DNA of 56,700 bases, taken from the NCBI GenBank assembly GCA_020053475.1, contig JAGVNC010000019.1, forward strand, positions 1-56,700, in the 5' to 3' direction. The position numbers and the translations under genes are program-made. This DNA is from Candidatus Omnitrophota bacterium (GTDB taxonomy: Bacteria > Omnitrophota > Gorgyraeia > Zapsychrales > Zapsychraceae). Below, piece by piece: positions 5,203-56,700 of this stretch; the stretch's first letter is position 1; each line of letters starts with the position of its first letter. Under the pieces are notes generated by a model, which was not told the origin of the DNA, made no database searches, and worked only from the letters and a program-made list of their open reading frames with translations.

Positions 5203-6426
5203 ATGACAAAAAAATTTTTAAAAACGAAAGGGACAAAGATCATTCAGCCGGATGGCCGGCCTCTTTATTTAACCGGCGTTAATTTGGGCGGATGGCTTAT
5301 GATGGAAGCTTATTTTATGCATGCTCCCAATCGCCCGGAAAAGGAATTTAAAGAGGAATTCAGAAAGACATTGGGAGCCAAGGCGCTCCAAGACTTTGAA
5401 GACAGTTTTCGCCGCCATTTTATCCAAGAGAAAGATTTTCAAGCCATCGCCGGTTACGGGTTGAATTGCCTGCGCGTGCCGTTTCATTACAACCTCGTGG
5501 AGAAATCTCCGTATCGTTTTCCATCTGCTGATATCCGTTATTTGGATCAAGTCGTTCGCTGGGCTGAAAAATATAAGATTTGGGTCATCCTGGATTTGCA
5601 CGCGGCTCCGGGTGCCCAGAATCACGATTGGCATTCGGATAGCTCCGGGGAAATAGAGTTATGGACGCGCCTTGCCAATCAAAAAAGAACGTTTGCCATT
5701 TGGGAGTTTTTAGCCGACCGCTACAAGGATAAAGAATGGGTGGCCGGCTACGATGTGTTAAACGAAGCGGTTATCTCTGATCCCCGGCCCTTAAATCAAT
5801 TTTATAAAAAATTGATTAAGGTGATCCGCAGCGTTGATCGCAATCATCTCCTATTCATCGAAGGCAATCATTGGGCGCAAGATATTGCCTGCTTAGATCC
5901 CATTGAAGATGATCATTATGTCTTAAGCGTCCATCATTATGAACCGTTAAACTTTACATTTAATTTTACGTTTCATTTGCATTATCCTGTGGATACAAAA
6001 ATGATCAAATGTAATAAAGACATCTTGCGGGCGCATTTGGAGAAATATTACCTCGAATCGAAAAAACGCAAGGCGCCCATCCTTGTCGGAGAATTCGGGG
6101 TCAATTACCGCAAAGGGTTTTTTAACGAACAGCAATGGGTCCAAGACGCTCTCGCGTGCTTCCATGATTTTGGGTTTCATTGGGCCTATTGGACGTATAA
6201 GGCCATCAAGAATAGTTTTTATCCTGACGGGATATTTAGTTATGAGCCGAATCCACCCTGGGTGAACCGCGGGGGGCCTGTGACCGGATGGAATACATAC
6301 TCGCGGCTTTGGCCGACGCGTAAAAAAGACATGTGTGAATCATGGCACACGGATCAATTTGCTAAAAACGACTTTATCCTGCAAGCTTTACAAAATGCCT
6401 CCAGAAAATATCACGAGTCTAAATAA
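5203..6426 (+). CDS. Glycoside hydrolase family 5 (cellulase-like)
   Basis: Has the acid/base motif DVLNEA and the nucleophile motif ILVGEFG, plus LRVPF and HHYEP blocks typical of GH5. Confidence 0.75.
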   Translation: MTKKFLKTKGTKIIQPDGRPLYLTGVNLGGWLMMEAYFMHAPNRPEKEFKEEFRKTLGAKALQDFEDSFRRHFIQEKDFQAIAGYGLNCLRVPFHYNLVEKSPYRFPSADIRYLDQVVRWAEKYKIWVILDLHAAPGAQNHDWHSDSSGEIELWTRLANQKRTFAIWEFLADRYKDKEWVAGYDVLNEAVISDPRPLNQFYKKLIKVIRSVDRNHLLFIEGNHWAQDIACLDPIEDDHYVLSVHHYEPLNFTFNFTFHLHYPVDTKMIKCNKDILRAHLEKYYLESKKRKAPILVGEFGVNYRKGFFNEQQWVQDALACFHDFGFHWAYWTYKAIKNSFYPDGIFSYEPNPPWVNRGGPVTGWNTYSRLWPTRKKDMCESWHTDQFAKNDFILQALQNASRKYHESK

Positions 6427-44985: not shown

Positions 44986-44990
44986 TTCTC

Positions 44991-45053
44991 CCGTGGAAGG
45001 CAAAGCCTTCCCGGGATTTTAAATCCCCGAAATCGCGAAGCGATTTCAGGAGA
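44991..45053 (-). repeat. REP/MITE-like double-hairpin element (copy 2; inverted relative to the 52476 copy)
   Basis: The element reads ccgtggaaggc-aaa-gccttcccgg, then gggattttaaatcccc, then gaaatcgc-gaa-gcgatttc. It is about 88% identical to the reverse complement of 52476..52536. A partial third arm tcccgtggaaag follows. Confidence 0.8.
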
Positions 45054-45153
45054 TCCCGTGGAAAGTAAAGTAAAAGAGTTTAAACTCCCTATTATCAAAA
45101 CATTTTTATCGCAACCCAAAACGCTTTCGATGGACGACTACTTAAAGTAAACG

Positions 45154-46119: not shown

Positions 46120-46596
46120 ATGGAAAGAATCGGCATAGGATTTGATATTCATCGCCTGGTCAAGGGGCGGAAACTCATTTTAGGGGGGGTGGAGATTCCC
46201 CACCCCGTCGGTTTAGAAGGGCATTCAGATGCGGATGTTTTGTTGCACGCGGTGTGCGACGCGCTTCTAGGGGCCATGGGCAAGGGGGATATCGGTGAGC
46301 ATTTCCCCAATACCGATAAAGCCTTGAAAGATATTTCCAGCATGGCCTTGTTGGGGAAGGTCAATGATCTTTTACAGCAGGAAGGCTACGCGGTCGTCAA
46401 CGTCGACGCGGTCATTCACGCCCAGGAGCCAAAGTTGAGCGCGTATAAATCGCAGATGCGGGTTCATCTCGCGGATACATTGGCCATCGATGAAACAGCC
46501 GTGAACATTAAAGCCACGACGCATGAAGGACTGGGCTCGATCGGAAGTAAGCAAGGCATTGCCGCTTCCGCCGTTGCGTTAATCAGAAAAATTTAA
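46120..46596 (+). CDS. ispF: 2-C-methyl-D-erythritol 2,4-cyclodiphosphate synthase
   Basis: IGFDIHRL, GHSDADVLLHA..DA.LGA and ATT.E.LG..G. Confidence 0.9.
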   Translation: MERIGIGFDIHRLVKGRKLILGGVEIPHPVGLEGHSDADVLLHAVCDALLGAMGKGDIGEHFPNTDKALKDISSMALLGKVNDLLQQEGYAVVNVDAVIHAQEPKLSAYKSQMRVHLADTLAIDETAVNIKATTHEGLGSIGSKQGIAASAVALIRKI

Positions 46597-46694
46597 GTCC
46601 TTCGATGCCACTCCCCGGCCCGAGGCAACGGTTGCGGTGGGTGAATGAGTAGAGTCAAACCCCTGAAGAGTCCAAAAGGAGCAAGGAGTACATT

Positions 46695-47381
46695 ATGGAA
46701 TTATTAAACGGATTATTTACATTGTTTTTATTTGTGGCAGGGTTTGTCCTGGTGGTCGCTGTGTTTTTCCAGGAGGAAATTAAATCCACCAAAGAACGCG
46801 ACCCGGCGGCTACGGGATATTTACAAATCATCCTGTTGTATGCCGGATTGCACGCGCTGATCGGCTATAAAATTTCCAGCGCGTTATGGAAGGCCAATTT
46901 GAAACTGTTGGCACGGGCCGTGTCGCAGTTCACGCGCTTTTTGACCGGCATTGAAATCCATCCCGCAGCCGTGATTGGCCGCGGGTTGTTCATCGATCAC
47001 GGAATGGGCGTTGTCGTCGGAGAGACATCCATCATCGGAGAAAATGTGACCTTGTTCCAAGGCGTGACGCTCGGGGGGACAGGTAAGGAGACGGGCAAGC
47101 GCCACCCCACACTGGGAAATAATATCGTGGTCGGGGCCGGGGCCAAGATTTTAGGCAATATTGTGATCGGGGACAACACGTATGTTGGGGCCAATGCGGT
47201 GGTGTTGCGCGATATTCCGGCCAATTCAACGGTCGTGGGCGTTCCCGGGCACATCACCAAGCAAGACGGCAAGAAAATCGATATCATGCTCGACCATGCC
47301 CAGGCATCGGACCCGATTATGCAGCATTTGAAAGATTTACTTGTCCGCATCAAAACGTTGGAAGATAAGGATAAACATTAA
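46695..47381 (+). CDS. cysE: Serine O-acetyltransferase
   Basis: IHPAA.IG.G.FIDHG.GVVIGET..IG, with hexapeptide repeats. Confidence 0.85.
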   Translation: MELLNGLFTLFLFVAGFVLVVAVFFQEEIKSTKERDPAATGYLQIILLYAGLHALIGYKISSALWKANLKLLARAVSQFTRFLTGIEIHPAAVIGRGLFIDHGMGVVVGETSIIGENVTLFQGVTLGGTGKETGKRHPTLGNNIVVGAGAKILGNIVIGDNTYVGANAVVLRDIPANSTVVGVPGHITKQDGKKIDIMLDHAQASDPIMQHLKDLLVRIKTLEDKDKH

Positions 47382-47387
47382 ATCATT

Positions 47388-47458
47388 CCTGGATTGTCCG
47401 CTGGCCTTTCCGCTCAGGCGCTTCGCTAATTCGCGGCAAGGCCACCAGCCAATCCAGG
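47388..47458 (+). repeat. Hairpin unit 1 of the cysE-cysS array (core in + orientation)
   Basis: Stems cctggattg/caatccagg, tggcctt/aaggcca and ccgc/gcgg enclose the core tccgctcaggcgcttcgctaattcgcg (47409-47435). Confidence 0.85.
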
Positions 47459-47471
47459 ATGTTATTTAATA

Positions 47472-47556
47472 AATCTTGGTTTTTATTGGCCTTTCGGCTC
47501 AGGCGCGGGCAAAAAGCGCCCGCTAATTCGCCTCAAAGCCAATAAAAACCAAGATT
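47472..47556 (+). repeat. Hairpin unit 2 (core in + orientation, apex expanded)
   Basis: Perfect 19-bp stem aatcttggtttttattggc/gccaataaaaaccaagatt. The core is tcggctcaggcgc[gggcaaaaagcgcc]cgctaattcgcc (47494-47532). Confidence 0.85.
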
Positions 47557-47568
47557 ATCAATTTTAAT

Positions 47569-47634
47569 GTGGATTTTTTTAGCCTCGACGCGAATTAGCG
47601 AAGCGCCTTGAGCGGAGAAGCTAAAAAAATCCAC
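47569..47634 (-). repeat. Hairpin unit 3 (core inverted)
   Basis: Perfect 15-bp stem gtggatttttttagc/gctaaaaaaatccac. The core at 47589-47616 is the reverse complement, tccgctcaaggcgcttcgctaattcgcg. The unit is followed by gttgatatttttt. Confidence 0.85.
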
Positions 47635-47654
47635 GTTGATATTTTTTCCTGATC

Positions 47655-49061
47655 ATGGCACTTTATATTTATAATTCTCTCACCAAGCGCAAAGAGGCCA
47701 TTCCTCCCGCCAAAGAGCAAAAAACCATCAAGATGTATTCGTGCGGTGTCACGGCGTACGACCGTTGCCACATTGGCCACGCCCGCAGCCTGTACGTGTT
47801 CGACGTGATCCGTCGGTACTTAAAATTTAGCGGATACAACATGAATTTTGTGCGCAACATTACCGACATCGATGACAAAATCATCAACAGAGCCAACGAA
47901 TTAAAGAAACGTTTTGAAGTTGTTGTCAAAGAGAACATCGACGCCTACTATCAGGATTTGGAAGCGCTGGGGATCGCCAAGGCCGACATCGAGCCGCGCG
48001 CGACCGAGAACATCCCGGAGATGGTTGCCCACATCGAGGCCTTGATTAAGAAAGATTACGCGTACGAGATCGGGGGAGACGTGTATTTTAGCGTCCGCCA
48101 ATTCAAGAATTACGGCAAGCTTTCGCACCAAAGCATCGATCAAATGAAGGAAGCCACGCGCATCGATGCCGATCCGCGCAAAAAAGACCCCCTGGATTTC
48201 GCGTTGTGGAAAAAATCCAAAGACGGCGAGCCTTCTTGGAAAAGTCCGTGGGGACAAGGACGCCCGGGTTGGCACATCGAATGCTCGTGCATGAGCATGA
48301 AATTTTTAAAGACCCATACATTGGACATCCACGCCGGCGGACGGGACCTGATTTTCCCGCACCACGAAAACGAGATCGCCCAGTCCGAGGCCTTGACCGG
48401 AAAACCGTTTGCCAAACATTGGATCCATCACGGGTTGCTCACCATTAACGGCCAAAAGATGGCCAAGTCGTTAGGGAATTTTATTACCGTTCAGGACGTG
48501 TTAAAAAAATATCCCGTCGATACCCTCAAAATGTTTTTTTTAGCGTCGCATTACGCGAGCCCCATTGATTATAGCGAAGAAAAAATCCAGGAAGCGGGCA
48601 AGGCCCTGCAAAAATTTGATATTCTCTTTTGGAAGGCCGCCGGATTGATCCAGGACGAAACAATCGAAGGCTGCAACGCGGATTTCATCGAGCGCGCGGA
48701 AATAAGTTTTACCAAAGCAATGGACGATGATTTTAATACGCCTCAGGCGTTAGCGGCGTTGTTCGATCTCGTCAATGACACCAACAAATTCATCGATGAG
48801 GAAAAGAAAGATCCCCGTTACCAGGAAATCATTTTCCAAGCGGTCGAGACGCTGGAAACGTATTGCCGGGAAGTGTTCGGGCTCTTTACGAAAGAGCCGC
48901 AAAAAGAATTACCGCCGGCAACCAAAGAGTTACTCGATCAGCGCGCCCAAGCCAGGCAAAAGAAAGATTTCAAGCGGTCCGATGAGATCCGTGCGTTGTT
49001 ACAGGCCCAAGGTGTTGTCGTTGAAGATACCAAAGAAGGCCAAACGTGGAGATGGGCGTGA
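47655..49061 (+). CDS. cysS: Cysteine--tRNA ligase
   Basis: Contains CGVT.YD..HIGHAR, the zinc-site CH motifs and the KMSKS variant KMAKS. Confidence 0.9.
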   Translation: MALYIYNSLTKRKEAIPPAKEQKTIKMYSCGVTAYDRCHIGHARSLYVFDVIRRYLKFSGYNMNFVRNITDIDDKIINRANELKKRFEVVVKENIDAYYQDLEALGIAKADIEPRATENIPEMVAHIEALIKKDYAYEIGGDVYFSVRQFKNYGKLSHQSIDQMKEATRIDADPRKKDPLDFALWKKSKDGEPSWKSPWGQGRPGWHIECSCMSMKFLKTHTLDIHAGGRDLIFPHHENEIAQSEALTGKPFAKHWIHHGLLTINGQKMAKSLGNFITVQDVLKKYPVDTLKMFFLASHYASPIDYSEEKIQEAGKALQKFDILFWKAAGLIQDETIEGCNADFIERAEISFTKAMDDDFNTPQALAALFDLVNDTNKFIDEEKKDPRYQEIIFQAVETLETYCREVFGLFTKEPQKELPPATKELLDQRAQARQKKDFKRSDEIRALLQAQGVVVEDTKEGQTWRWA

Positions 49062-49645
49062 GGATTCCCAACGTTTATATTATTGCCGGGCCTAATGGAG
49101 CTGGGAAAACAACGTTTGCTAAACAATATTTACCTTTATATGCTAAATGCAAAAATTTTGTAAACGCTGATTTTATTGCGCAAGGGTTGGCGCCGTTTAC
49201 ACCAGAATCGGTTGTCATTAAAGCAGGTAGGATTCTTTTAGAACAAATTGATGCTTTAGCTAACCAAAATGTTGATTTTGCCTTTGAGTCTACTTTGTCA
49301 GGTAAAGCATATATCCCCTTTCTCAAAGAATTAAAATCGAAGGGTTATATTATTCATATTTTCTTTTTATGGATTCCTACCGTCAATCTTGCTTTAGCCA
49401 GAATTAGAGAAAGAGTAGAACAAGGTGGGCATAACGTTCCTGCCAAAGATGTTCGTCGGCGTTTTGTAAAAAGTTTGAATAATTTCTTTAACGATTATAA
49501 ACTGCTTACTGATCATTGGTGTATCCTTGACAATTCTACCATCCCGCCTCGATTACTTGCTGAGGGAAAACCTGGTAAAATTGATATTTTTGATGCTGAG
49601 GTTTATAAAAACATTTCAAAAGGAAGGGATAAAACCCATGATTAA
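49052..49645 (+). CDS. Zeta-toxin-like / COG4185-type P-loop ATPase
   Basis: Walker A IIAGPNGAGKTT and a zeta-like layout (FAFESTLSG; GGHNVP..DVRRRF). The start overlaps the cysS stop. AT-richer than its neighbours. Confidence 0.65.
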   Translation: MGVRIPNVYIIAGPNGAGKTTFAKQYLPLYAKCKNFVNADFIAQGLAPFTPESVVIKAGRILLEQIDALANQNVDFAFESTLSGKAYIPFLKELKSKGYIIHIFFLWIPTVNLALARIRERVEQGGHNVPAKDVRRRFVKSLNNFFNDYKLLTDHWCILDNSTIPPRLLAEGKPGKIDIFDAEVYKNISKGRDKTHD

Positions 49646-49802
49646 AGTGAAAAAAATTAGAAATCAGGCTGAAAAAGCCATGCGAGAAGCCGTAAATAAA
49701 GTTGTTGAAGAGAGTAAGAAATCTGGAATTCTTTTACCTGTCTGGAAAAACGGCAAAGTGGCTTATATTAGAGCCAAAAATATTCGCAAAACGGGACGAT
49801 AA
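49638..49802 (+). CDS. 54-aa basic protein translationally coupled to the zeta-like gene
   Basis: MIKVKKIRNQAEKAMREAVNKVVEESKKSGILLPVWKNGKVAYIRAKNIRKTGR*. Its ATG overlaps the upstream stop (ATGATTAA), and an SD (AGGAAGGG) lies about 10 nt upstream. Confidence 0.5.
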   Translation: MIKVKKIRNQAEKAMREAVNKVVEESKKSGILLPVWKNGKVAYIRAKNIRKTGR

Positions 49803-49807
49803 CGCAG

Positions 49808-50440
49808 ATGAAGGGTAAATTCATTACATTCGAAGGATCGGAAGGGTCGGGGAAGTCGACGCAGATTGCGTTGCTGCATAAATATTTGAAACGCAAAGGC
49901 AAGTCGATTGTCTTTATCCGCGAGCCGGGGGCCACCAACATCGGCGAGAAAATCCGCCAGGTGCTCCTTGACGTCAAGAGTGCGGGGATGAATGATATTT
50001 GCGAAACGTTTCTCTACATGGCCGCGCGCGCGCAGTTGGTCGAGGAAGTGATTCGCCCCGCGCTCGCCCAAGGCAAAATTGTGTTGTGCGACCGATTTTT
50101 AGATTCCACATCTGTTTACCAGGGTTACGGCAACGGCGTTGATTTAAAATTGATCGAATCAATGGGCAAGGCCGCCACACAAGGCGTTAATCCGGACATT
50201 ACGTTCTTTTTTGATTTGGATGCGGGCAAAGGATTGTCGCGACTGAAACGAAAGAAGGACCGCATCGAACGCCGCTCGCTCGCGTATCACCGTCGGGTGC
50301 GTGCTGGTTACCAGGCGCTGGCGAAGAAGGACCCGGAACGTATTAAATTAATCGCTGTCGATGGATCGATTGAAGAGATCCACGGGAGAGTAGTGGGATA
50401 TATTGATCAATTATTAAAAATCCAAAACTCAAAACACTAA
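49808..50440 (+). CDS. tmk: dTMP kinase
   Basis: FITFEGSEGSGKSTQ, DRF.DST.VYQG and the lid region RLKRKKDRIE. Confidence 0.9.
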   Translation: MKGKFITFEGSEGSGKSTQIALLHKYLKRKGKSIVFIREPGATNIGEKIRQVLLDVKSAGMNDICETFLYMAARAQLVEEVIRPALAQGKIVLCDRFLDSTSVYQGYGNGVDLKLIESMGKAATQGVNPDITFFFDLDAGKGLSRLKRKKDRIERRSLAYHRRVRAGYQALAKKDPERIKLIAVDGSIEEIHGRVVGYIDQLLKIQNSKH

Positions 50441-50543
50441 ATCCAAAATAAACTCAAAATACAAAATACAAAAGTACGAAATTGTTTGGATCATTTGAAT
50501 TTTGGATTTGTTTAGGATTTTGGGTTTAGAGTTTTGAGTTTAT
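50416..50543. repeat. About 128-nt imperfect palindrome (A/C-rich arm then G/T-rich arm) built from degenerate AAAYYCAAAAY units
   Basis: Arm pairings: actcaaaac.ctaaa with tttagagttttgagt, taaatccaaaat with attttgggttt, and aaactcaaaat with aattttggattt. The element overlaps the last 8 tmk codons and ends at the stop codon that opens the holB frame. Confidence 0.7.
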
Positions 50544-50549
50544 AAAAAT

Positions 50550-51554
50550 ATTACAGAAGACATCCTAATCCACAACGACGTTCTTCAAAGATTCGCTCAG
50601 CTCCACCAAGCCCAGCGCCTGGCGCACGCGTACCTGTTTGTGGGGGCGCTCGACATCGGCAAAAGCGAGACCGCCTTAACGATCGCCAAGCTCCTTAATT
50701 GTACGGCTCCTAAAGACGGCATGTATTGCAACACCTGCGCGACGTGTTTGAAAATTCAGTCCGGCAATTACCCCGACATTCACCGCATCAGCAGTGAAGA
50801 GGGCGAGGCCATTAAGATTGAGCAGATCCGCGATCTGTTGAACCAAAACAAACTGCGCACTTATGAAGCCGCTGTCAAGGTGTTCATCATCAAGAACGCC
50901 GAGAACATGACGACCGAGAGCGCCAACGCCTTCTTAAAGACGCTGGAGGAGCCTTCGGCCAACAGCCTGATTATCTTGACTACGTCAGTGCCGGAAAAAA
51001 TCTCGGCCACGATCCGTTCGCGCTGCCATTTCGTGTATTTTCGTAGCCGACCCAAAGAGATGCTTGTTGGCATGCTCGCCAAGACCTATTCAATGGACAA
51101 GCCCCAAGCCCAATTCCTGGCGTCGTTCGCCGAAGGGTGCTGGGGGCGCGCCAAAAAGTTGGAACAAGAAAAGTTTTACGACACCAAAAACGAAATCATC
51201 GACCGGTTTATCTTAGGCCGCCACCCCGCCCGCGGCGTTGGCCGCGAAGCGGCGGGGCCAGTTGGCGAGGCCTACATCAAAAGCATTTTGGCCGACAAAA
51301 AGCAGCTCAAGGAACTCTTAAACGTTGTCTTAAGCTGGGTCCGCGATTGTTACCTCATTAAAAATGGAGTGCCCGAAAAAGACTGGATGCACAATGACCG
51401 TTCCGACGATCTCATGCAATTTCAGCAACAGTACTCTTTCGGCGATTTAACGGCGCTCAAGGAAGAAGTGGTGGGCACCATGAATTTGTTAACAGAAAAC
51501 CTGAATGTGAAGATTCCTTTAATGATTATTCAGGAAAGGATGTCTCATGGATAG
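50550..51554 (+). CDS. holB: DNA polymerase III delta' subunit (start codon uncertain)
   Basis: ILIHNDVLQRFAQLHQAQRLAHAYLFVGALDIGKSETA...LLNC...C..C..C is the delta' N-terminus. Homology extends upstream of the first canonical start (GTG 50640). The frame opens at 50538, and only ATT/ATC/CTG codons lie before 50640. Confidence 0.75.
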   Translation: MTEDILIHNDVLQRFAQLHQAQRLAHAYLFVGALDIGKSETALTIAKLLNCTAPKDGMYCNTCATCLKIQSGNYPDIHRISSEEGEAIKIEQIRDLLNQNKLRTYEAAVKVFIIKNAENMTTESANAFLKTLEEPSANSLIILTTSVPEKISATIRSRCHFVYFRSRPKEMLVGMLAKTYSMDKPQAQFLASFAEGCWGRAKKLEQEKFYDTKNEIIDRFILGRHPARGVGREAAGPVGEAYIKSILADKKQLKELLNVVLSWVRDCYLIKNGVPEKDWMHNDRSDDLMQFQQQYSFGDLTALKEEVVGTMNLLTENLNVKIPLMIIQERMSHG

Positions 51555-52422
51555 AGTGGTTCAAATACAGCTGGGTGAATACCGGCCGGTTGGGTTGTTT
51601 GATATCAACTCAATCGAGGTGTCCCGCGGCGATATTGTGATTGTGGAAGTGGAACGCGGCTCCGAATTCGGCCGGGTCGTGTCGGTCACCGCCGGGGGCT
51701 GCAAAAGTAAGGCCGATGCCATCCTAGGCAAGATCCTTCGCAAGGCGACGGAAGGCGACCAAAAGCAAATTGAGAATAACCGCATGAAGGCGCAGGACGC
51801 GCTCAACAGCTGTGTGCGCAAAATCAGCGAGCGGGAACTCGACATGCAAATCATCAAGGCCGAGTACACATTCGACAGCAGTAAAATCATCTTTTCATTC
51901 ACATCCGACGGCCGTGTGGATTTTCGTAACCTTGTTAAAGACTTGGCTAAGATTTTTCGTGTCAGGATCGAGCTCAAGCAAATCGGCGTGCGCGACAAAG
52001 CCAAGATCGTCGGCGGCTACGGGGTCTGCGGCCGGGAGCTGTGCTGCTCCTCGTACATGAAAGGCTTCCACGCGCTGTCGATCAAGATGGCCAAAGAGCA
52101 GGGCCTGCCCTTAAACCCTTCGCGGATTTCCGGGGTGTGCGGACGGATCAAATGCTGCATGGCGTACGAATTTAGCGTGTACAAAGAATATGCGAAAGCC
52201 CTCCCGCACGTCGGGGACAAGCTGAGTGTCGGCGAGGAGAGCGGCAAGGTCGTCATCGTCAATATTTTAAAAAAATATGTCAACGTGGACTTAGGCGAGG
52301 GACGCATTGTCAAAGTCCAATGCGACACCCAAAGCCCGCGGATTGTGGAGAGCGCAGCTGTCGCCACCAAATCGAAGGATATGGATGACTCTGACCATCT
52401 TCACGAGATGGAGGATCATTAG
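51547..52422 (+). CDS. ricT: PSP1 domain protein (RicT/YaaT)
   Basis: GDIVIVEVERGSEFGRV, a PSP1 C-terminal domain and a Cys cluster (CGRELCC...CGRIKCC). Confidence 0.85.
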   Translation: MDRVVQIQLGEYRPVGLFDINSIEVSRGDIVIVEVERGSEFGRVVSVTAGGCKSKADAILGKILRKATEGDQKQIENNRMKAQDALNSCVRKISERELDMQIIKAEYTFDSSKIIFSFTSDGRVDFRNLVKDLAKIFRVRIELKQIGVRDKAKIVGGYGVCGRELCCSSYMKGFHALSIKMAKEQGLPLNPSRISGVCGRIKCCMAYEFSVYKEYAKALPHVGDKLSVGEESGKVVIVNILKKYVNVDLGEGRIVKVQCDTQSPRIVESAAVATKSKDMDDSDHLHEMEDH

Positions 52423-52475
52423 GAATGTTTATTAATGTCGCCAGCCGCCAGTCTCTGGTGACCGGCGACTAGCGA

Positions 52476-52536
52476 TCCTCTGAAATCGCTTTACGATTTC
52501 GGGGATTAAATCCCGGGAAGGCGAAGCCTTCCACGG
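52476..52536 (+). repeat. REP/MITE-like double-hairpin element (copy 1) flanked by a 9-bp direct repeat
   Basis: The element reads ctgaaatcg-cttta-cgatttcgg, then ggggattaaatccc, then cgggaaggc-gaa-gccttccacgg. gactagcga occurs at 52467-75 and again at 52537-45. Confidence 0.8.
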
Positions 52537-52548
52537 GACTAGCGACTT

Positions 52549-54045
52549 ATGAAAAAATTTTTTGTAACTACTCCAATTTACTACGTCAACGACAAGCCGC
52601 ACATCGGCCACGCGTACACAACCATCCTCGCCGATGTCTTGAGCCGCTTCCACCGCCAGCAGGGAGACGATGTCTTTTTCTTGACGGGATTGGATGAGCA
52701 CGGACAAAAAGTCCTGCAAGCCGCCGAGAAACGCGGCGTGTCCCCCCAACAACACTGCGACGAACTCGCCCCGCGCTTTTTGCAGTTGTGGGACAAGTTA
52801 GAAATCGGTTACAGCGACTTTATCCGCACGACCCAGTTGCGCCACGTCAAAGTCGTCCAGGATGTGTTGCAAAAAGTGTACGACGCCGGCGACATTTATC
52901 AGGATGAGTACACGGGCTGGTATTCCGTGGCCGAGGAGCGCTTCATCACCGCAACCGAAAAAGAATCGGGGCAGTTTCGCGACGTCAAAGAGCTCAAAGA
53001 AAAGAATTGGTTTTTTAAGATGAGTAAGTATCAGGCGCAGCTCATCAAAACCATCGAAGACAATCCCGGCTTTATCCAACCCAGCCATCGACGTAATGAA
53101 ATCCTTGGGTTTTTAAAGCAACCGTTGGGTGATTTGTGTATTTCCCGTCCCAAATCACGGATGAGTTGGGGGATTGATTTGCCCTTCGACAAGGATTACG
53201 TCACCTACGTCTGGTGGGACGCGCTGGTCAATTACATCACCGCTCCCGGTTACGGCGTCGATGAGAATAATTTCAAGAAATGGTGGCCGGCCCAAGTGCA
53301 TTTGATCGGCAAAGATATTCTAACGACCCACGCTGTGTATTGGCCCACCATGTTATTTTCGTTGGGGCTCCCGTTGCCGCAAACGATTTTCGCGCACGGC
53401 TGGTGGCTCATCGGGGAATCCAAAATGAGCAAGTCGGTGGGGAACGTCGTCAATCCTCTGGATTTGGTCGACAAGTATGGGGTTGATCCGGTGCGTTATT
53501 TTTTGATGCGCGAGATGATTTTAGGCCAGGACGCGAATTTCACGCTCGATAGTTTTATCAAACGCTACAATTCGGATCTTGCCAATGATTTTGGGAATTT
53601 GCTCAATCGTGTCGGGGGGCTCATCACGAAATTGTTTAATGGAGAAGTGCCCAAGCCCGGAAAATCCGAAGCCACTGAAACCGAAATCCACAATATCGTC
53701 AATGCGTTGCCTGAGAAAATCAATAAATGTTTAAGCGAATGGAGTGTCAATGGCGCGATTGAAGAGGCAATGAACCTCGTGCGCCACACCAATAAATATA
53801 TTGAATCGCAAGCCCCCTGGAAGGTCGCCAAAACCGATATGGAGCGCACCGCCACCATCCTCTACACAGCCACCGAAGCGCTACGCGCCGCCACTGTTCA
53901 CCTTGCCGCGGTCATGCCAGCGAAAACCAATACCGTTTTAGCAATTTTAGGCGCCAAAGGCACCGGCCCGTCGTGGGGAGGGCTCAAGCCCGGCACCAAA
54001 CTCCCCAGCCATGAAGCGTTGTTTCCGAGGTTGGAGGTGGAATGA
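52549..54045 (+). CDS. metG: Methionine--tRNA ligase (short form)
   Basis: Contains TTPIYYVNDKPHIGHAY and KMSKSVGN; 498 aa with no C-terminal tRNA-binding domain. Confidence 0.9.
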   Translation: MKKFFVTTPIYYVNDKPHIGHAYTTILADVLSRFHRQQGDDVFFLTGLDEHGQKVLQAAEKRGVSPQQHCDELAPRFLQLWDKLEIGYSDFIRTTQLRHVKVVQDVLQKVYDAGDIYQDEYTGWYSVAEERFITATEKESGQFRDVKELKEKNWFFKMSKYQAQLIKTIEDNPGFIQPSHRRNEILGFLKQPLGDLCISRPKSRMSWGIDLPFDKDYVTYVWWDALVNYITAPGYGVDENNFKKWWPAQVHLIGKDILTTHAVYWPTMLFSLGLPLPQTIFAHGWWLIGESKMSKSVGNVVNPLDLVDKYGVDPVRYFLMREMILGQDANFTLDSFIKRYNSDLANDFGNLLNRVGGLITKLFNGEVPKPGKSEATETEIHNIVNALPEKINKCLSEWSVNGAIEEAMNLVRHTNKYIESQAPWKVAKTDMERTATILYTATEALRAATVHLAAVMPAKTNTVLAILGAKGTGPSWGGLKPGTKLPSHEALFPRLEVE

Positions 54046-54059
54046 TGAATTATGCTTCC

Positions 54060-54121
54060 ATAATCGTGAAAGATGTGATTATTTCGTATGTTTTCACGAT
54101 TATATTAACAAAATCGTGAAA
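54060..54121. promoter_or_regulatory. Three copies of AATCGTGAAA (direct, inverted, direct)
   Basis: ataatcgtgaaa at 54060-71, its exact reverse complement at 54092-54103, and aatcgtgaaa at 54112-21. Confidence 0.6.
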
Positions 54122-54189
54122 ATAAGGGTTGTTTGGCCATATGGTCAAGGCGTTCGAGCGCGCCACAGAAGGTGATGCTCTGCACTGTC

Positions 54190-54266
54190 ATTTGCGAACC
54201 ATCGGCTGTGGTTCGCAAAATCCACTTGTTTTCAGGCCCGATCAATGGTATATTATTTGCGAACCA
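54190..54266. promoter_or_regulatory. Three copies of (A)TTTGCGAACCA: an inverted pair plus one copy abutting the -10
   Basis: tttgcgaacca at 54191-201, tggttcgcaaa at 54209-19, and atttgcgaacca at 54255-66. Confidence 0.6.
54226..54254 (+). promoter_or_regulatory. Candidate promoter of the fic gene
   Basis: TTGTTT, a 17-nt spacer, then TATATT. Operator-like repeats lie immediately upstream of the -35 and downstream of the -10. Confidence 0.4.
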
Positions 54267-54308
54267 ACACGAGTAATTCGATCAATTTTATGTGGAAAAT
54301 GAGGTCTT

Positions 54309-55367
54309 ATGGTTCGGAAAGTTCGATTAACTAAGTCCCCCGATTTGAAGTCCCAGGTCCAACAGCTGCGTTCCCAGTTCGGTGATGTGATCAATGTCAC
54401 CAACGCCGAATGGTATTCTTTATTTAAAGATGAAATCCGCAATTCGATCGCGATTGAAGGTGTTTTCACCAACCGCCAGGACCTCTTAGATGTCCTTGAA
54501 CATAACAAACGCACGGACAAGCAAAAGGCGGCGGCAATTTTGGGTTACTACGAAGCCGCCAGTGCCATGTATGAATACGCCAATAATCAATTTAAAGAAA
54601 ATGAGTTTATGCTGCGCATGGCCGATATTAAGCAAATCCATACGCTCTTGATGCGTTATGAAAAAGATCTAGGAACATATATTGGCGCGATTGGGGATTT
54701 CCGCAAAAATAATATCCAGGTGGCCCAGGCCACATTTCGCCCTGTGGATGTTTTTTACGTGCGCCAGGCCATGGAATTGTTCATTAAATGGTTTAATGAA
54801 AATCTAAAAAAGAAACATTATGACGGCATCACGTTGTCCGCCATCGCCCATGTCTGGTTCGAGACCATTCATCCCTTTAGCGACGGCAACGGGCGGGTGG
54901 GGAGGATCTTATTGAATTATGCCCTCATTGGGCAGGGGTTGATGAATGTGGCGATTAAAGGCGTCGCCAAGAATGAGCGTGAGCAATACTATCATGTCTT
55001 GGAGAAAGCGGACCGCTCGTTTGAAGACATTCATCGTCGGATCGAGGGGGGGAAGAAAATCCAACCCGCCGATCTCGCCCGATCAATCCGCCAAGAAGAT
55101 GTCCAGCCGTTTGTTGTCATGATTACCGGGTTGCTCAAGGAAGCAATCAACCGGCTGAAAGGCGGGAAGCTAACGAATTTAAGCCAGGAAGCGCTTGTGC
55201 CTTTACGCGATCTCGCCCGTGTGTATGACTATTCGCAGGATTATCTGCGCAATTTGATCAATCGCGGCCAGTTGAAAGCTCAGAAAAAAGGGAAGCTGTG
55301 GTACGTCCGTGTGCGCGATTTAGCGCGGTACGTGGAGAAGGCGGGGAAAAGTGCGCCACACCAATAA
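54309..55367 (+). CDS. fic: Fic/DOC family protein with N-terminal inhibitory helix motif and C-terminal excisionase/MerR-like HTH
   Basis: Fic motif HPFSDGNGRVGR. The sequence SIAIEG fits the (S/T)xxxE(G/N) auto-inhibition motif. The C-terminus LVPLRDLARVYDYSQDYLRNLINRGQLKAQKKGKLWYVRVRDLARYV is HTH_17-like. Confidence 0.8.
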   Translation: MVRKVRLTKSPDLKSQVQQLRSQFGDVINVTNAEWYSLFKDEIRNSIAIEGVFTNRQDLLDVLEHNKRTDKQKAAAILGYYEAASAMYEYANNQFKENEFMLRMADIKQIHTLLMRYEKDLGTYIGAIGDFRKNNIQVAQATFRPVDVFYVRQAMELFIKWFNENLKKKHYDGITLSAIAHVWFETIHPFSDGNGRVGRILLNYALIGQGLMNVAIKGVAKNEREQYYHVLEKADRSFEDIHRRIEGGKKIQPADLARSIRQEDVQPFVVMITGLLKEAINRLKGGKLTNLSQEALVPLRDLARVYDYSQDYLRNLINRGQLKAQKKGKLWYVRVRDLARYVEKAGKSAPHQ

Positions 55368-55508
55368 ATATATCGAATGCCAGCAAAAACCAATACCGTC
55401 TTAGCAATTTTAAGCGCCAAAGGCACCGGCCCGTCGTGGGGTGGGCTAAAGCCTGGTACCAAATTACCCGCGCACGAAGCATTGTTCCCGAGGTTGGAGG
55501 TGGAGTAG
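55351..55508 (+). pseudogene. Second, internally deleted copy of the metG 3' end
   Basis: 55351-78 matches 53779-53806, and 55379-55508 matches 53916-54045. A 109-nt internal deletion causes a frameshift. The last 43 codons differ at 17 of 129 nt, mostly synonymously. Confidence 0.85.
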
Positions 55509-55512
55509 AAAA

Positions 55513-55977
55513 ATGACTAATCAAAATAGATTTTTAAGCTTCTCAGATGAATATAGGGAATGTGTAGCTAATTGGCGATTTATAATTGGTACTCGTTTTA
55601 CAATTTTAGGTTTTTATTTAACATTTAATGCTGCATTTTTATTCCAGGTGTTAAGTCCAGAAATAGAAAATTTATATGCTAAATTAATTATTTCATTAGT
55701 AGCCTTAGGTACTTCAATGTTCATACTTTGTCTTCAGATTAGAAATCGAGAACTTTATTTTCAGTGCGTTGAAAGAGCTAAGCAAATTGAAAGTAATAAG
55801 GAAAGCATGCAGACCCTAATGGTATTAATGGATGATCCTAAGATTATTCATAAGTCTTCTGGTTATGGACTTCATACAGTAGGATTATACGGCTTGCATT
55901 GGCTTGGGATTATAATTTGGTTAATTTTAGCCTTCATATATTCGTTCCAGTTTTTTTCATGCCCATGCTTAAAATAG
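55513..55977 (+). CDS. Hypothetical multi-pass membrane protein (AT-rich)
   Basis: 3-4 predicted TM helices with no recognisable family. The start lies 5 nt after the pseudo-metG stop, so the SD GGAGGTGGAG comes from the metG tail. Confidence 0.5.
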   Translation: MTNQNRFLSFSDEYRECVANWRFIIGTRFTILGFYLTFNAAFLFQVLSPEIENLYAKLIISLVALGTSMFILCLQIRNRELYFQCVERAKQIESNKESMQTLMVLMDDPKIIHKSSGYGLHTVGLYGLHWLGIIIWLILAFIYSFQFFSCPCLK

Positions 55978-56045
55978 AAGAATATGAGAAATAGATATGA
56001 ATTTCGAGACCACCCGAACTCGTAGCATACGTTCCCTCATTTAAA

Positions 56046-56498
56046 ATGAAAGAAATAAAACAAGCAAAATCAGGTTTAGGTTATTTAGATATCAATCTAT
56101 CGCAGAATAGCTTATCCATCACTAAAGCATTTTTCTGGCAGATTAAACATAACTCCGGCCAGATAGAAGTTAGTCTTAAAATAGGGAGATATAAAAAGAA
56201 TGCAAAAGTAATTTGGTTAGTTGATGGGCCAGTTTGTAGTGATCCAAAAAGCGAAATCACATTAAATGAAAAAGAATGGAAGGCTATGGTAGACTTTATT
56301 TCCGAAAATCATCAACCAATAAAAGACAATGTAAAATATTATATCCCGTTTAATGAGAAATTTGATGCTACGAGTATTAAGCATTTAAAAGCAATTTTTA
56401 ACAATGAAGAGAAGAAAACAGTGCTAGATTTTATTACTCCCCGAAGGGGCAGAATACCACGGGCTTGCCCGTGGATGAATGTTGAGGAGCCGATATGA
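56046..56498 (+). CDS. Hypothetical protein (AT-rich); 3' end probably read-through into an IS end
   Basis: No recognisable family. The last ~20 codons are encoded by GC-rich hairpin DNA (56439-56474). Confidence 0.4.
   Translation: MKEIKQAKSGLGYLDINLSQNSLSITKAFFWQIKHNSGQIEVSLKIGRYKKNAKVIWLVDGPVCSDPKSEITLNEKEWKAMVDFISENHQPIKDNVKYYIPFNEKFDATSIKHLKAIFNNEEKKTVLDFITPRRGRIPRACPWMNVEEPI
56439..56474. repeat. Two short GC hairpins upstream of the tnpA fragment (candidate IS200/IS605 left-end structure)
   Basis: cccc-gaa-gggg at 56439-49 and ccacgggc-tt-gcccgtgg at 56457-74. Confidence 0.5.
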
Positions 56499-56510
56499 TA
56501 GAATGTGGGA

Positions 56511-56654
56511 ATGGAAAATCGATTTTCTGGGCACGGTGTATATCGAGCGCAATATCATATCGTTTGGGCAACAAAATATCGGCGACGAATCCTGAATCCT
56601 GGGATGATCTTCCCCCGAAAAAGTGGACACTATGAAGAGTTGGTGTTAGGGTAA
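56511..56654 (+). pseudogene. tnpA: Truncated IS200/IS605-family (Y1) transposase TnpA
   Basis: Hand translation gives MENRFSGHGVYRAQYHIVWATKYRRRILNPG. The segment YHIVWATKYRRRIL is the N-terminal TnpA signature. Similarity then stops and a stop codon follows after 47 aa. Confidence 0.6.
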
Positions 56655-56700
56655 AAGCCAGCTCAGAAGGGGGTGTCCGATGGTAGGAGAAAACGGAAAA

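Follow-up and report, generated by a model that had tools for sequence, protein, structure and literature searches.

A Fic gene islet between two copies of the metG end in a Candidatus Omnitrophota contig and its possible origin

Cis-mobilizable elements (CIMEs) accrete in tandem at the 3' ends of protein-coding genes, as in the islands related to the integrative and conjugative elements (ICEs) ICESt1 and ICESt3 at fda in Streptococcus thermophilus (PMC5704250). In the tycheposon islands of Prochlorococcus, successive integrations leave partial tRNAs (10.1101/2020.12.28.424599), and SoFic is a single-gene anti-phage defense (PMC11514479). Here we describe a locus that shares features with each of these. 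It lies on a 56,700-nt stretch of DNA, called the window below, which is an entire contig of Candidatus Omnitrophota bacterium, from an uncultivated groundwater lineage. In the window, a gene for a Fic protein with an HTH_17 domain (Fic-HTH_17) stands between the working 3' end of metG, the methionine-tRNA ligase (MetRS) gene, and a second, orphan copy of that end. We lean, with modest confidence, toward the view that this Fic islet was acquired horizontally and is an integrase-less, CIME-like part of a tandem array that a site-specific recombinase would have built at a hotspot behind metG.

The comparison set consisted of 80 loci, nearly all from Candidatus Omnitrophota or neighboring lineages. 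The gene downstream of metG was inspected in 24 relatives, and a second metG tail was sought at 78 related loci. A near-conspecific strain is known from groundwater sequencing runs X1 and X2 (the related runs being X1 to X4), and X1 contigs were read beyond their aligned parts by means of 30-nt loose ends.

The two metG ends and the Fic gene between them

The metG gene (52549 to 54045, plus strand) is intact and full length, so the target gene was left whole by the insertion. Its product of 498 amino acids has tRNA-synt_1g (Pfam E value, 9e-103) and Anticodon_3 domains and aligns end to end, C terminus included, with MetRS proteins of Omnitrophota at identities of up to 75%. That figure is also the best among 5.8 billion proteins, and therefore no conspecific assembly is present in that set; exact-protein look-ups with the Fic and MetRS of the window returned no other contig. 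Upstream of the site, the gene order tmk-holB-PSP1-metG is kept among relatives as housekeeping synteny.

Tail copy A, the working end of metG, covers 267 nt (53779 to 54045), and tail copy B, the orphan end, covers 158 nt (55351 to 55508); both are on the plus strand, and they make up the attL-like and attR-like sides of the islet, respectively (att, attachment site). They were delimited by blastn, a repeat search and codon comparison, with dN/dS in addition for copy B. A blastn comparison of 55300-55560 with 53700-54100 matched 55377-55505 to 53914-54042 at 115/129 positions (E value, 7e-44), and a second piece matched 55351-55384 to 53779-53813. The repeat search paired 53914-54041 with 55377-55504 at 88% identity and 53779-53806 with 55351-55378 at 27/28 positions. 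The plus-strand block at 53779 to 53806 contains the near-palindrome CAATAAATATATTG and may be the region of crossover. Copy B lacks 109 nt of copy A, the deletion lying at 55377/55378, shifting the frame and leaving a 2-nt (AT) junction overlap. This bears out an earlier reading made from the sequence alone (the sequence-only reading), in which 55351-55508 repeats the metG tail with a 109-nt deletion. The longest perfect match between the copies is 23 nt. The pair 53779-54045 and 55351-55508 forms a direct repeat of a gene end, as integrative elements that target gene 3' ends do.

The two copies differ almost entirely at silent sites. In the last 43 sense codons we counted 16 nucleotide differences in 129 nt, one fewer than the 17 first reported, and two more fall in the stop codons (TGA versus TAG), whose position is unchanged. 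The two amino acid changes given in the sequence-only reading (G to S and S to A) stand, and 12 further codons differ synonymously. Differences at codon positions 1, 2 and 3 number 3, 1 and 12 (P = 8e-4 against equal thirds), the Nei-Gojobori estimates are 0.51 for dS and 0.046 for dN, and the ratio is 0.09. When half of the changes were taken as neutral and placed at random on a dead copy, simulation gave a probability of 0.007 for two or fewer amino acid changes. The low dN/dS and the simulation therefore argue that each tail evolved in a genome of its own while it served as the end of a functional gene. We take this pattern as showing that tails A and B diverged under purifying selection in different genomes; the recount that could have revealed random divergence upheld the synonymous bias that the sequence-only reading had proposed.

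The islet measures 1,572 bp (53779 to 55350) and consists of tail A, a regulatory spacer and the Fic-HTH_17 gene, which is SoFic-like and would regulate itself. That gene (54309 to 55367, plus strand) encodes a class II Fic protein of 352 amino acids (Pfam Fic E value, 7e-18; HTH_17, 1.5e-7); in its translation, the inhibitory motif SIAIEG and HPFSDGNGRVGR occur in one chain. The gene runs into the first block of tail B, which provides its five final codons and the TAA stop (55365-55367). The PADLOC SoFic model matches it with an E value of 3.7e-35 over model positions 49-245 of 361, and it scores 50.5 bits with the NCBIfam SoFic equivalog, below the cutoff of 550. A function in anti-phage defense is probable, judging from the PADLOC match. 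Together, the comparisons of the tails and of the islet with its relatives show what appears to be foreign DNA, a self-contained gene set between metG ends of different genomic origin.

The 145-nt spacer (54046 to 54190, plus strand) carries the palindrome TTTTCACGATTATATTAACAAAATCGTGAAAA and, by motif count, three copies of AATCGTGAAA (54062 plus, 54092 minus and 54112 plus) where 0.4 would be expected. The Fic promoter and operator region that follows (54191 to 54325, plus strand) was recognized from its conservation in 26 aligned Fic loci and a promoter scan. It begins with the palindrome TTTGCGAACCA-N7-TGGTTCGCAAA (54191-54219), continues with a promoter-like site (54229-54256) and ends in a second, degenerate palindrome with a half-site over the ATG. 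The palindromes flank the promoter and look like operators for the predicted HTH_17 domain. A Xer/dif-like reading of these palindromes and of the 28-nt block was dropped: the palindromes have an 11+7+11 layout and flank a promoter, and the block has only a presumed likeness to dif. An Rfam search of 52300-56700 gave no match, and scans of viral contigs for the 23-nt core, the tail end and Fic relatives gave nothing. As a side observation, the three AATCGTGAAA motifs (54062-54121) are arranged about a TTAACA/TTGACA box as a palindromic module that resembles an operator; this module is also found upstream of the Fic gene of locus L110 (1925-1990) and on several unrelated contigs of runs X1-X3, where the flanks differ and bear more such motifs.

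The metG site in relatives and strains

In 16 of the 24 related species, a gene of the IF-2B family (MtnA type), whose product begins MAIETIKW..IIDQTKLP, lies within about 25 nt of the metG stop; this gene was not found in the window. A second metG tail was present at 0 of the 78 related loci, whether these were probed with the tail of the window or with their own, and Fic, orf154 (see below) and sduA were near metG in none of the related loci. The duplication is thus no long-standing, fixed trait, and the ancient, fixed tandem repeat that would have counted against the sequence-only reading was looked for without success. The relatives' uninterrupted junction of metG with the IF-2B gene, the lack of a second tail and a different junction in run X1 together mark an empty site.

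The X1 junction comes from the near-conspecific strain, whose contigs in X1 and X2 are 99.6-99.7% identical to the window over 46276-48383. From 48354 to the end of metG, identity falls to 92-98% in a mosaic, in which segments of 99-100% alternate with segments of 91-96% (48354-54048) beside the variable site. This mosaic indicates repeated homologous exchange in the flank of the island. One X1 contig of 279 nt covers 53826-54048 at 92% and, beyond TGATGA, runs on into TGAGGCCAGGCCATTTATTCC instead of the spacer of the window, so that the X1 DNA departs from the window 6 nt after the metG stop. No X1 contig matched the Fic gene at a likeness of at least 85%, a result to be read with the reservation that contigs show presence and cannot prove absence. 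A second X1 contig, of 592 nt, holds an orphan metG tail with homology from near 55389, preceded by sequence that does not code for MetRS. Its last 30 aligned nucleotides agree with copy B at 28/30 positions and with copy A at 20/30, and its own stop is followed by a different gene (MKKFVIVV...). The site is thus variable between strains, and metG tails recur there in different contexts. The comparison that the sequence-only reading had called for accordingly showed both empty sites, with metG abutting the IF-2B gene, and strain-variable DNA behind metG.

Tail B directly heads a further AT-rich islet, in agreement with the earlier suggestion that the Fic unit is the first of a tandem array. 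Its first gene, orf154 (55513 to 55977, plus strand, 31% GC), starts 4 nt after the tail B stop and encodes a predicted membrane protein, with a sub-threshold 8xMP match only. There follows an N-terminal fragment of Shedu SduA (DUF4263; 56046 to 56498, plus strand, 31% GC), which matches the PADLOC SduA model with an E value of 5.4e-24 over positions 1-123 of 319; the open reading frame (ORF) is cut after about 130 codons and falls short of a full-length DUF4263 nuclease. The gene is truncated by an IS200/IS605-like remnant (56431 to 56700, plus strand), made up of hairpins and the first ~32 amino acids of a Y1 transposase (Pfam Y1_Tnp, 2.3e-4, below the family cutoff), in which the contig ends. 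The depth of the remnant in run X2 is 174x, and it is therefore a repeated element. The site is empty in related species and filled otherwise in the conspecific strain, and behind tail B lies a further foreign islet.

Other features were noticed upstream. Directly after the cysS stop lies a 756-nt insert of 36% GC (49063-49818), with no flanking duplication seen; 49046-49645 encodes a P-loop protein of the Zeta_toxin family, and a small ORF lies downstream. Because X1 and X2 contigs join 49062 to 49819 with AGGACG between them, this insert is strain variable. A pair of 67-nt inverted repeats, 87% identical, occupies 52474-52538 and 44989-45055; one copy sits in the PSP1-metG spacer as a GC-rich hairpin, and the pair resembles a repetitive extragenic palindrome (REP) or a miniature inverted-repeat transposable element (MITE). 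The tmk-holB spacer (50418-50543) holds a cluster of long AT-rich inverted repeats with a depth of 71x in X1 and 134x in X2 versus about 5x nearby, which suggests a dispersed repeat.

The Fic module at other loci and the origin of the islet

Relatives of the Fic-HTH_17 protein number in the hundreds, about 100 of them at 71-79% identity and 344-363 amino acids in length. The module occurs in more than 20 other contexts, and all those examined were different; they include a type II secretion operon, eno-divIC-tRNA-Met, cytochrome c biogenesis genes, sugar epimerase genes, tRNA-Ser and msrA. Homology between loci starts exactly at the first palindrome and breaks off no more than a few codons from a conserved ...KLWYVRVxDLAxYIN end, even at 86-91% nucleotide identity, and no conserved sequence was found 3' of the Fic stop across loci.

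Three loci link the module to an integrase. Loci L091 (2542-3788) and L094 (3845-5092) hold a solo Fic cassette of 1,248 nt that is 99.4% identical between them, has unrelated flanks and is bounded by copies of the palindromic site cctGTAATtgtaGTTAC. In L093 (1-5098), cctGTAATtgtaGTTAC follows the Fic gene at the end of an element with an AlpA-like helix-turn-helix (HTH) protein, a tyrosine integrase (PF00589, 8.6e-27) and a relaxase. The three loci show that this cargo does travel at the att-proximal end of elements with an integrase and that it persists in the form of solo cassettes. The palindromic site that bounds them, TGTAAT-N-RTTACA, is absent from the window. A screen of the Fic neighborhoods by regular expression and Pfam scan (102 proteins, with the 25 commonest families listed) placed a single integrase, that of L093.

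Pieces of host genes also lie beside Fic elsewhere. In L082, tRNA-Met stands upstream, and a degenerate 3' half of tRNA-Met begins directly at the Fic stop, from the anticodon loop, which is a classic place of integrase crossover. L098 has an orphan tRNA-Met half alone, upstream, and L115 and L117 carry an 18-nt piece of the tail of the upstream regulator gene at the Fic stop. In L103, three epimerase gene ends (2369-2517, 5365-5421 and 5922-6070) surround an islet of a DUF4143 ATPase and Fic. Some further details of these loci were noted. The orphan tRNA-Met half of L082 (7054-7210) is interrupted by several GC-rich, hairpin-forming insertions, which may stem from decay or mark a structured element. 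The working epimerase gene of L103 lacks its own stop and reads 16 codons into the insert; both orphan epimerase ends retain the native ...GIKETVK stop. In L100, a 22-nt direct repeat (21/22; 821-842 and 2599-2620) brackets a unit of msrA and Fic. Its right copy coincides with the 5' start of the next gene downstream, which means that the duplicated part at this locus is a gene start and not a gene end.

For the window, we propose the following course. DNA bearing its own metG end would have entered and recombined with the metG already in place, the crossover probably falling within or close to the 28-nt block at 53779-53806. The imported end A would then have become the functional 3' end of metG; end B, the earlier one, would have been displaced 1.57 kb downstream and would later have lost 109 nt. 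Tail B would still head the DNA that previously followed metG, an older AT-rich islet with orf154 and the Shedu gene broken by the IS200-like element, so that a tandem array of defense islets would stand between metG and its native neighbor; the IF-2B/MtnA-type neighbor must, on this course, lie past the end of the contig. A site-specific recombinase, acting in trans or since lost, is the most likely agent of the crossover, and the islet would be a CIME-like remnant formed by accretion. Homologous recombination in the flanking core genes would later have shuffled the whole array between strains. The direction of the event and the point of crossover are inferences from these patterns, as are the recombinase and the defense function.

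Several observations weigh against a recombinase. There is no integrase between the tail copies, where Fic is the sole real ORF (ORF list and Pfam), as the sequence-only reading had said, and none in the remaining 1.2 kb of the contig after tail B. Since the element lacks an integrase, the islet is not an integrative element in the strict sense. The earlier attL/attR interpretation holds in part: the gene-end repeat, the intact target and the empty site agree with it, and insertion by a site-specific integrase is a probable part of it. Elsewhere, no integrase was found near Fic in L082 (annotated genes within 6 kb) or in L103 and L115 (larger ORFs within about 4 kb). The flanking repeats at Fic loci range from 18 to 267 nt and the target gene differs from locus to locus, so many integrase specificities would be needed. 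The near-identity of the first repeat block against 12% divergence elsewhere in the repeat is not significant (an estimate, P about 0.13). Moreover, the metG of the window is 92-94% identical to that of X1 and X2 from well upstream of 53779, with no step in identity at that repeat boundary. The divergent tract begins at least 550 nt upstream of the boundary, X2 switching from 99% to 92% between 52907 and 53236. Homologous recombination in the flanks has thus had a hand in shaping the locus and in moving this region between strains.

Insertion by homology alone is a possible, if doubtful, alternative that draws on much of this evidence. In one version, circular or linear DNA of a related strain that had captured a metG end and Fic would have entered by a RecA-type single crossover of the Campbell type. 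In the other, homology-facilitated illegitimate recombination would have made one join inside metG by homology and linked the 3' end of Fic to resident position 53779 through microhomology. The long homology (267 nt) and the absence of an integrase fit such a route, as do the varying orphan lengths and target genes at other Fic loci and the start of the divergent tract upstream of the repeat boundary. The mosaic of 99-100% and 91-94% identity from 48.35 kb to the end of metG speaks of frequent homologous exchange, and the Fic ORF overruns the start of the orphan by a few codons, which is what an arbitrary join would produce. However, a longest perfect match of 23 nt at 88% identity is marginal for RecA, and the origin of a molecule with a gene tail, ending exactly at the Fic C terminus, is left unexplained by homology alone. 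The start of the L082 orphan in the anticodon loop also points to a recombinase, as do the site-flanked cassettes of L091, L093 and L094 with a matching integrase-bearing element.

That the Fic-HTH_17 module forms a discrete mobile unit in its own right, transferred by a host-encoded route or through its own palindromes, with imprecise excision at times capturing the upstream gene end and re-entry by homology, seems very unlikely to us. Module pairs at 86-91% nucleotide identity do share homology from the first palindrome to the stop codon between unrelated flanks, the C-terminal tails vary after the YIN-type end with flanking DNA supplying the stop in three independent loci, and many homologues lie on contigs of 1.2-1.9 kb. 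Yet the sharp boundaries may only mark the end of selection, the palindromes flank the promoter in the manner of HTH_17 operators, the flanking repeat is missing at most loci and no catalytic candidate was identified for the module. Fic domains are not known to act as recombinases.

Two further accounts can be dealt with briefly. A tandem duplication that arose in place and left one dead copy to diverge is the simplest source of a direct repeat and would suit the frame-shifting deletion in copy B, but it is scarcely credible: a neutral copy would gain mostly nonsynonymous changes (the simulated P of 0.007), the DNA between the copies is foreign and has no match in the contigs of the conspecific strain, and such a duplication was seen in no related species. 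We give next to no credence to a metagenome assembly chimera of two strains, although the contig is metagenomic, related strains co-occur in such samples and the contig ends in a repeated element, for the copies share at most 23 identical nt, k-mer overlap cannot give the Fic-orphan or 2-nt deletion junctions, an orphan metG tail occurs in a relative from an independent run, and the same architecture recurs in other genomes.

Comparison with known systems

The locus offers a clean example of small defense genes slotted behind an essential gene that is left unbroken, in an uncultivated phylum without genetics, and shows how synonymous-only divergence of gene ends can assign parts to different genomes from a single contig. 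The metG-MtnA junction could serve as a marker of strain-level island turnover in groundwater Omnitrophota, and the sharp boundaries and many contexts of the Fic-HTH_17 module make it a tractable subject for studies of SoFic-type defense and of integrase-less cassette movement. A wider reading, which we think rather improbable, is that Omnitrophota build defense islands from integrase-less, gene-sized cassettes with captured host gene ends that re-enter relatives through homology or a host recombinase. If so, the ends of core genes (metG, tRNA-Met and the epimerase gene) would act as exchangeable landing pads.

Such units recall integron cassettes, which are likewise gene sized, lack a recombinase of their own, form arrays and have a recombination site at the ORF 3' end, as here. 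Unlike them, the Fic islet has no attC-type site, IntI or attI; the Fic cassette has its own promoter, and its flanking repeats are host gene ends. The Fic protein resembles SoFic in being a class II Fic with the SxxxEG and HxFxDGNGRxxR motifs, encoded by a stand-alone gene at varying genome positions. It differs in its C-terminal HTH_17 domain, in having its own palindromic putative operators and in the low equivalog score given above.

As in tycheposons, gene-end integrations appear to push older elements inward, leaving partial gene copies and integrase-less remnants in a strain-variable island, and some related Fic loci (L082 and L098) even lie at tRNA-Met with an orphan half. Tycheposons, by contrast, target tRNA genes and are defined by tyrosine recombinases, whereas the islet behind metG lies at a protein-coding gene and no recombinase was seen.

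The locus also compares closely with CIMEs (PMC5704250). Direct repeats enclose the islet, and one of them forms the end of a target gene that remains intact; genes for integration or transfer are lacking inside it, and a second islet follows it in tandem at this site. A CIME keeps attL and attR without such genes, and the structure of the islet fits this, the repeats being putative att sites. For the other defining feature, descent from an ICE or an integrative and mobilizable element (IME), there is an analogue elsewhere only, in the IME of L093 with its terminal Fic and the solo cassettes of L091 and L094; no parent element with an integrase was found for the metG site. The islet also departs from described CIMEs in its target (metG) and host (Omnitrophota) and in its repeat, which is long (267 nt) and 12% diverged, unlike their short, identical att core. 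The locus bears the marks of horizontal insertion at a hotspot, which are clear but not unusual, and its structure is of a known kind.

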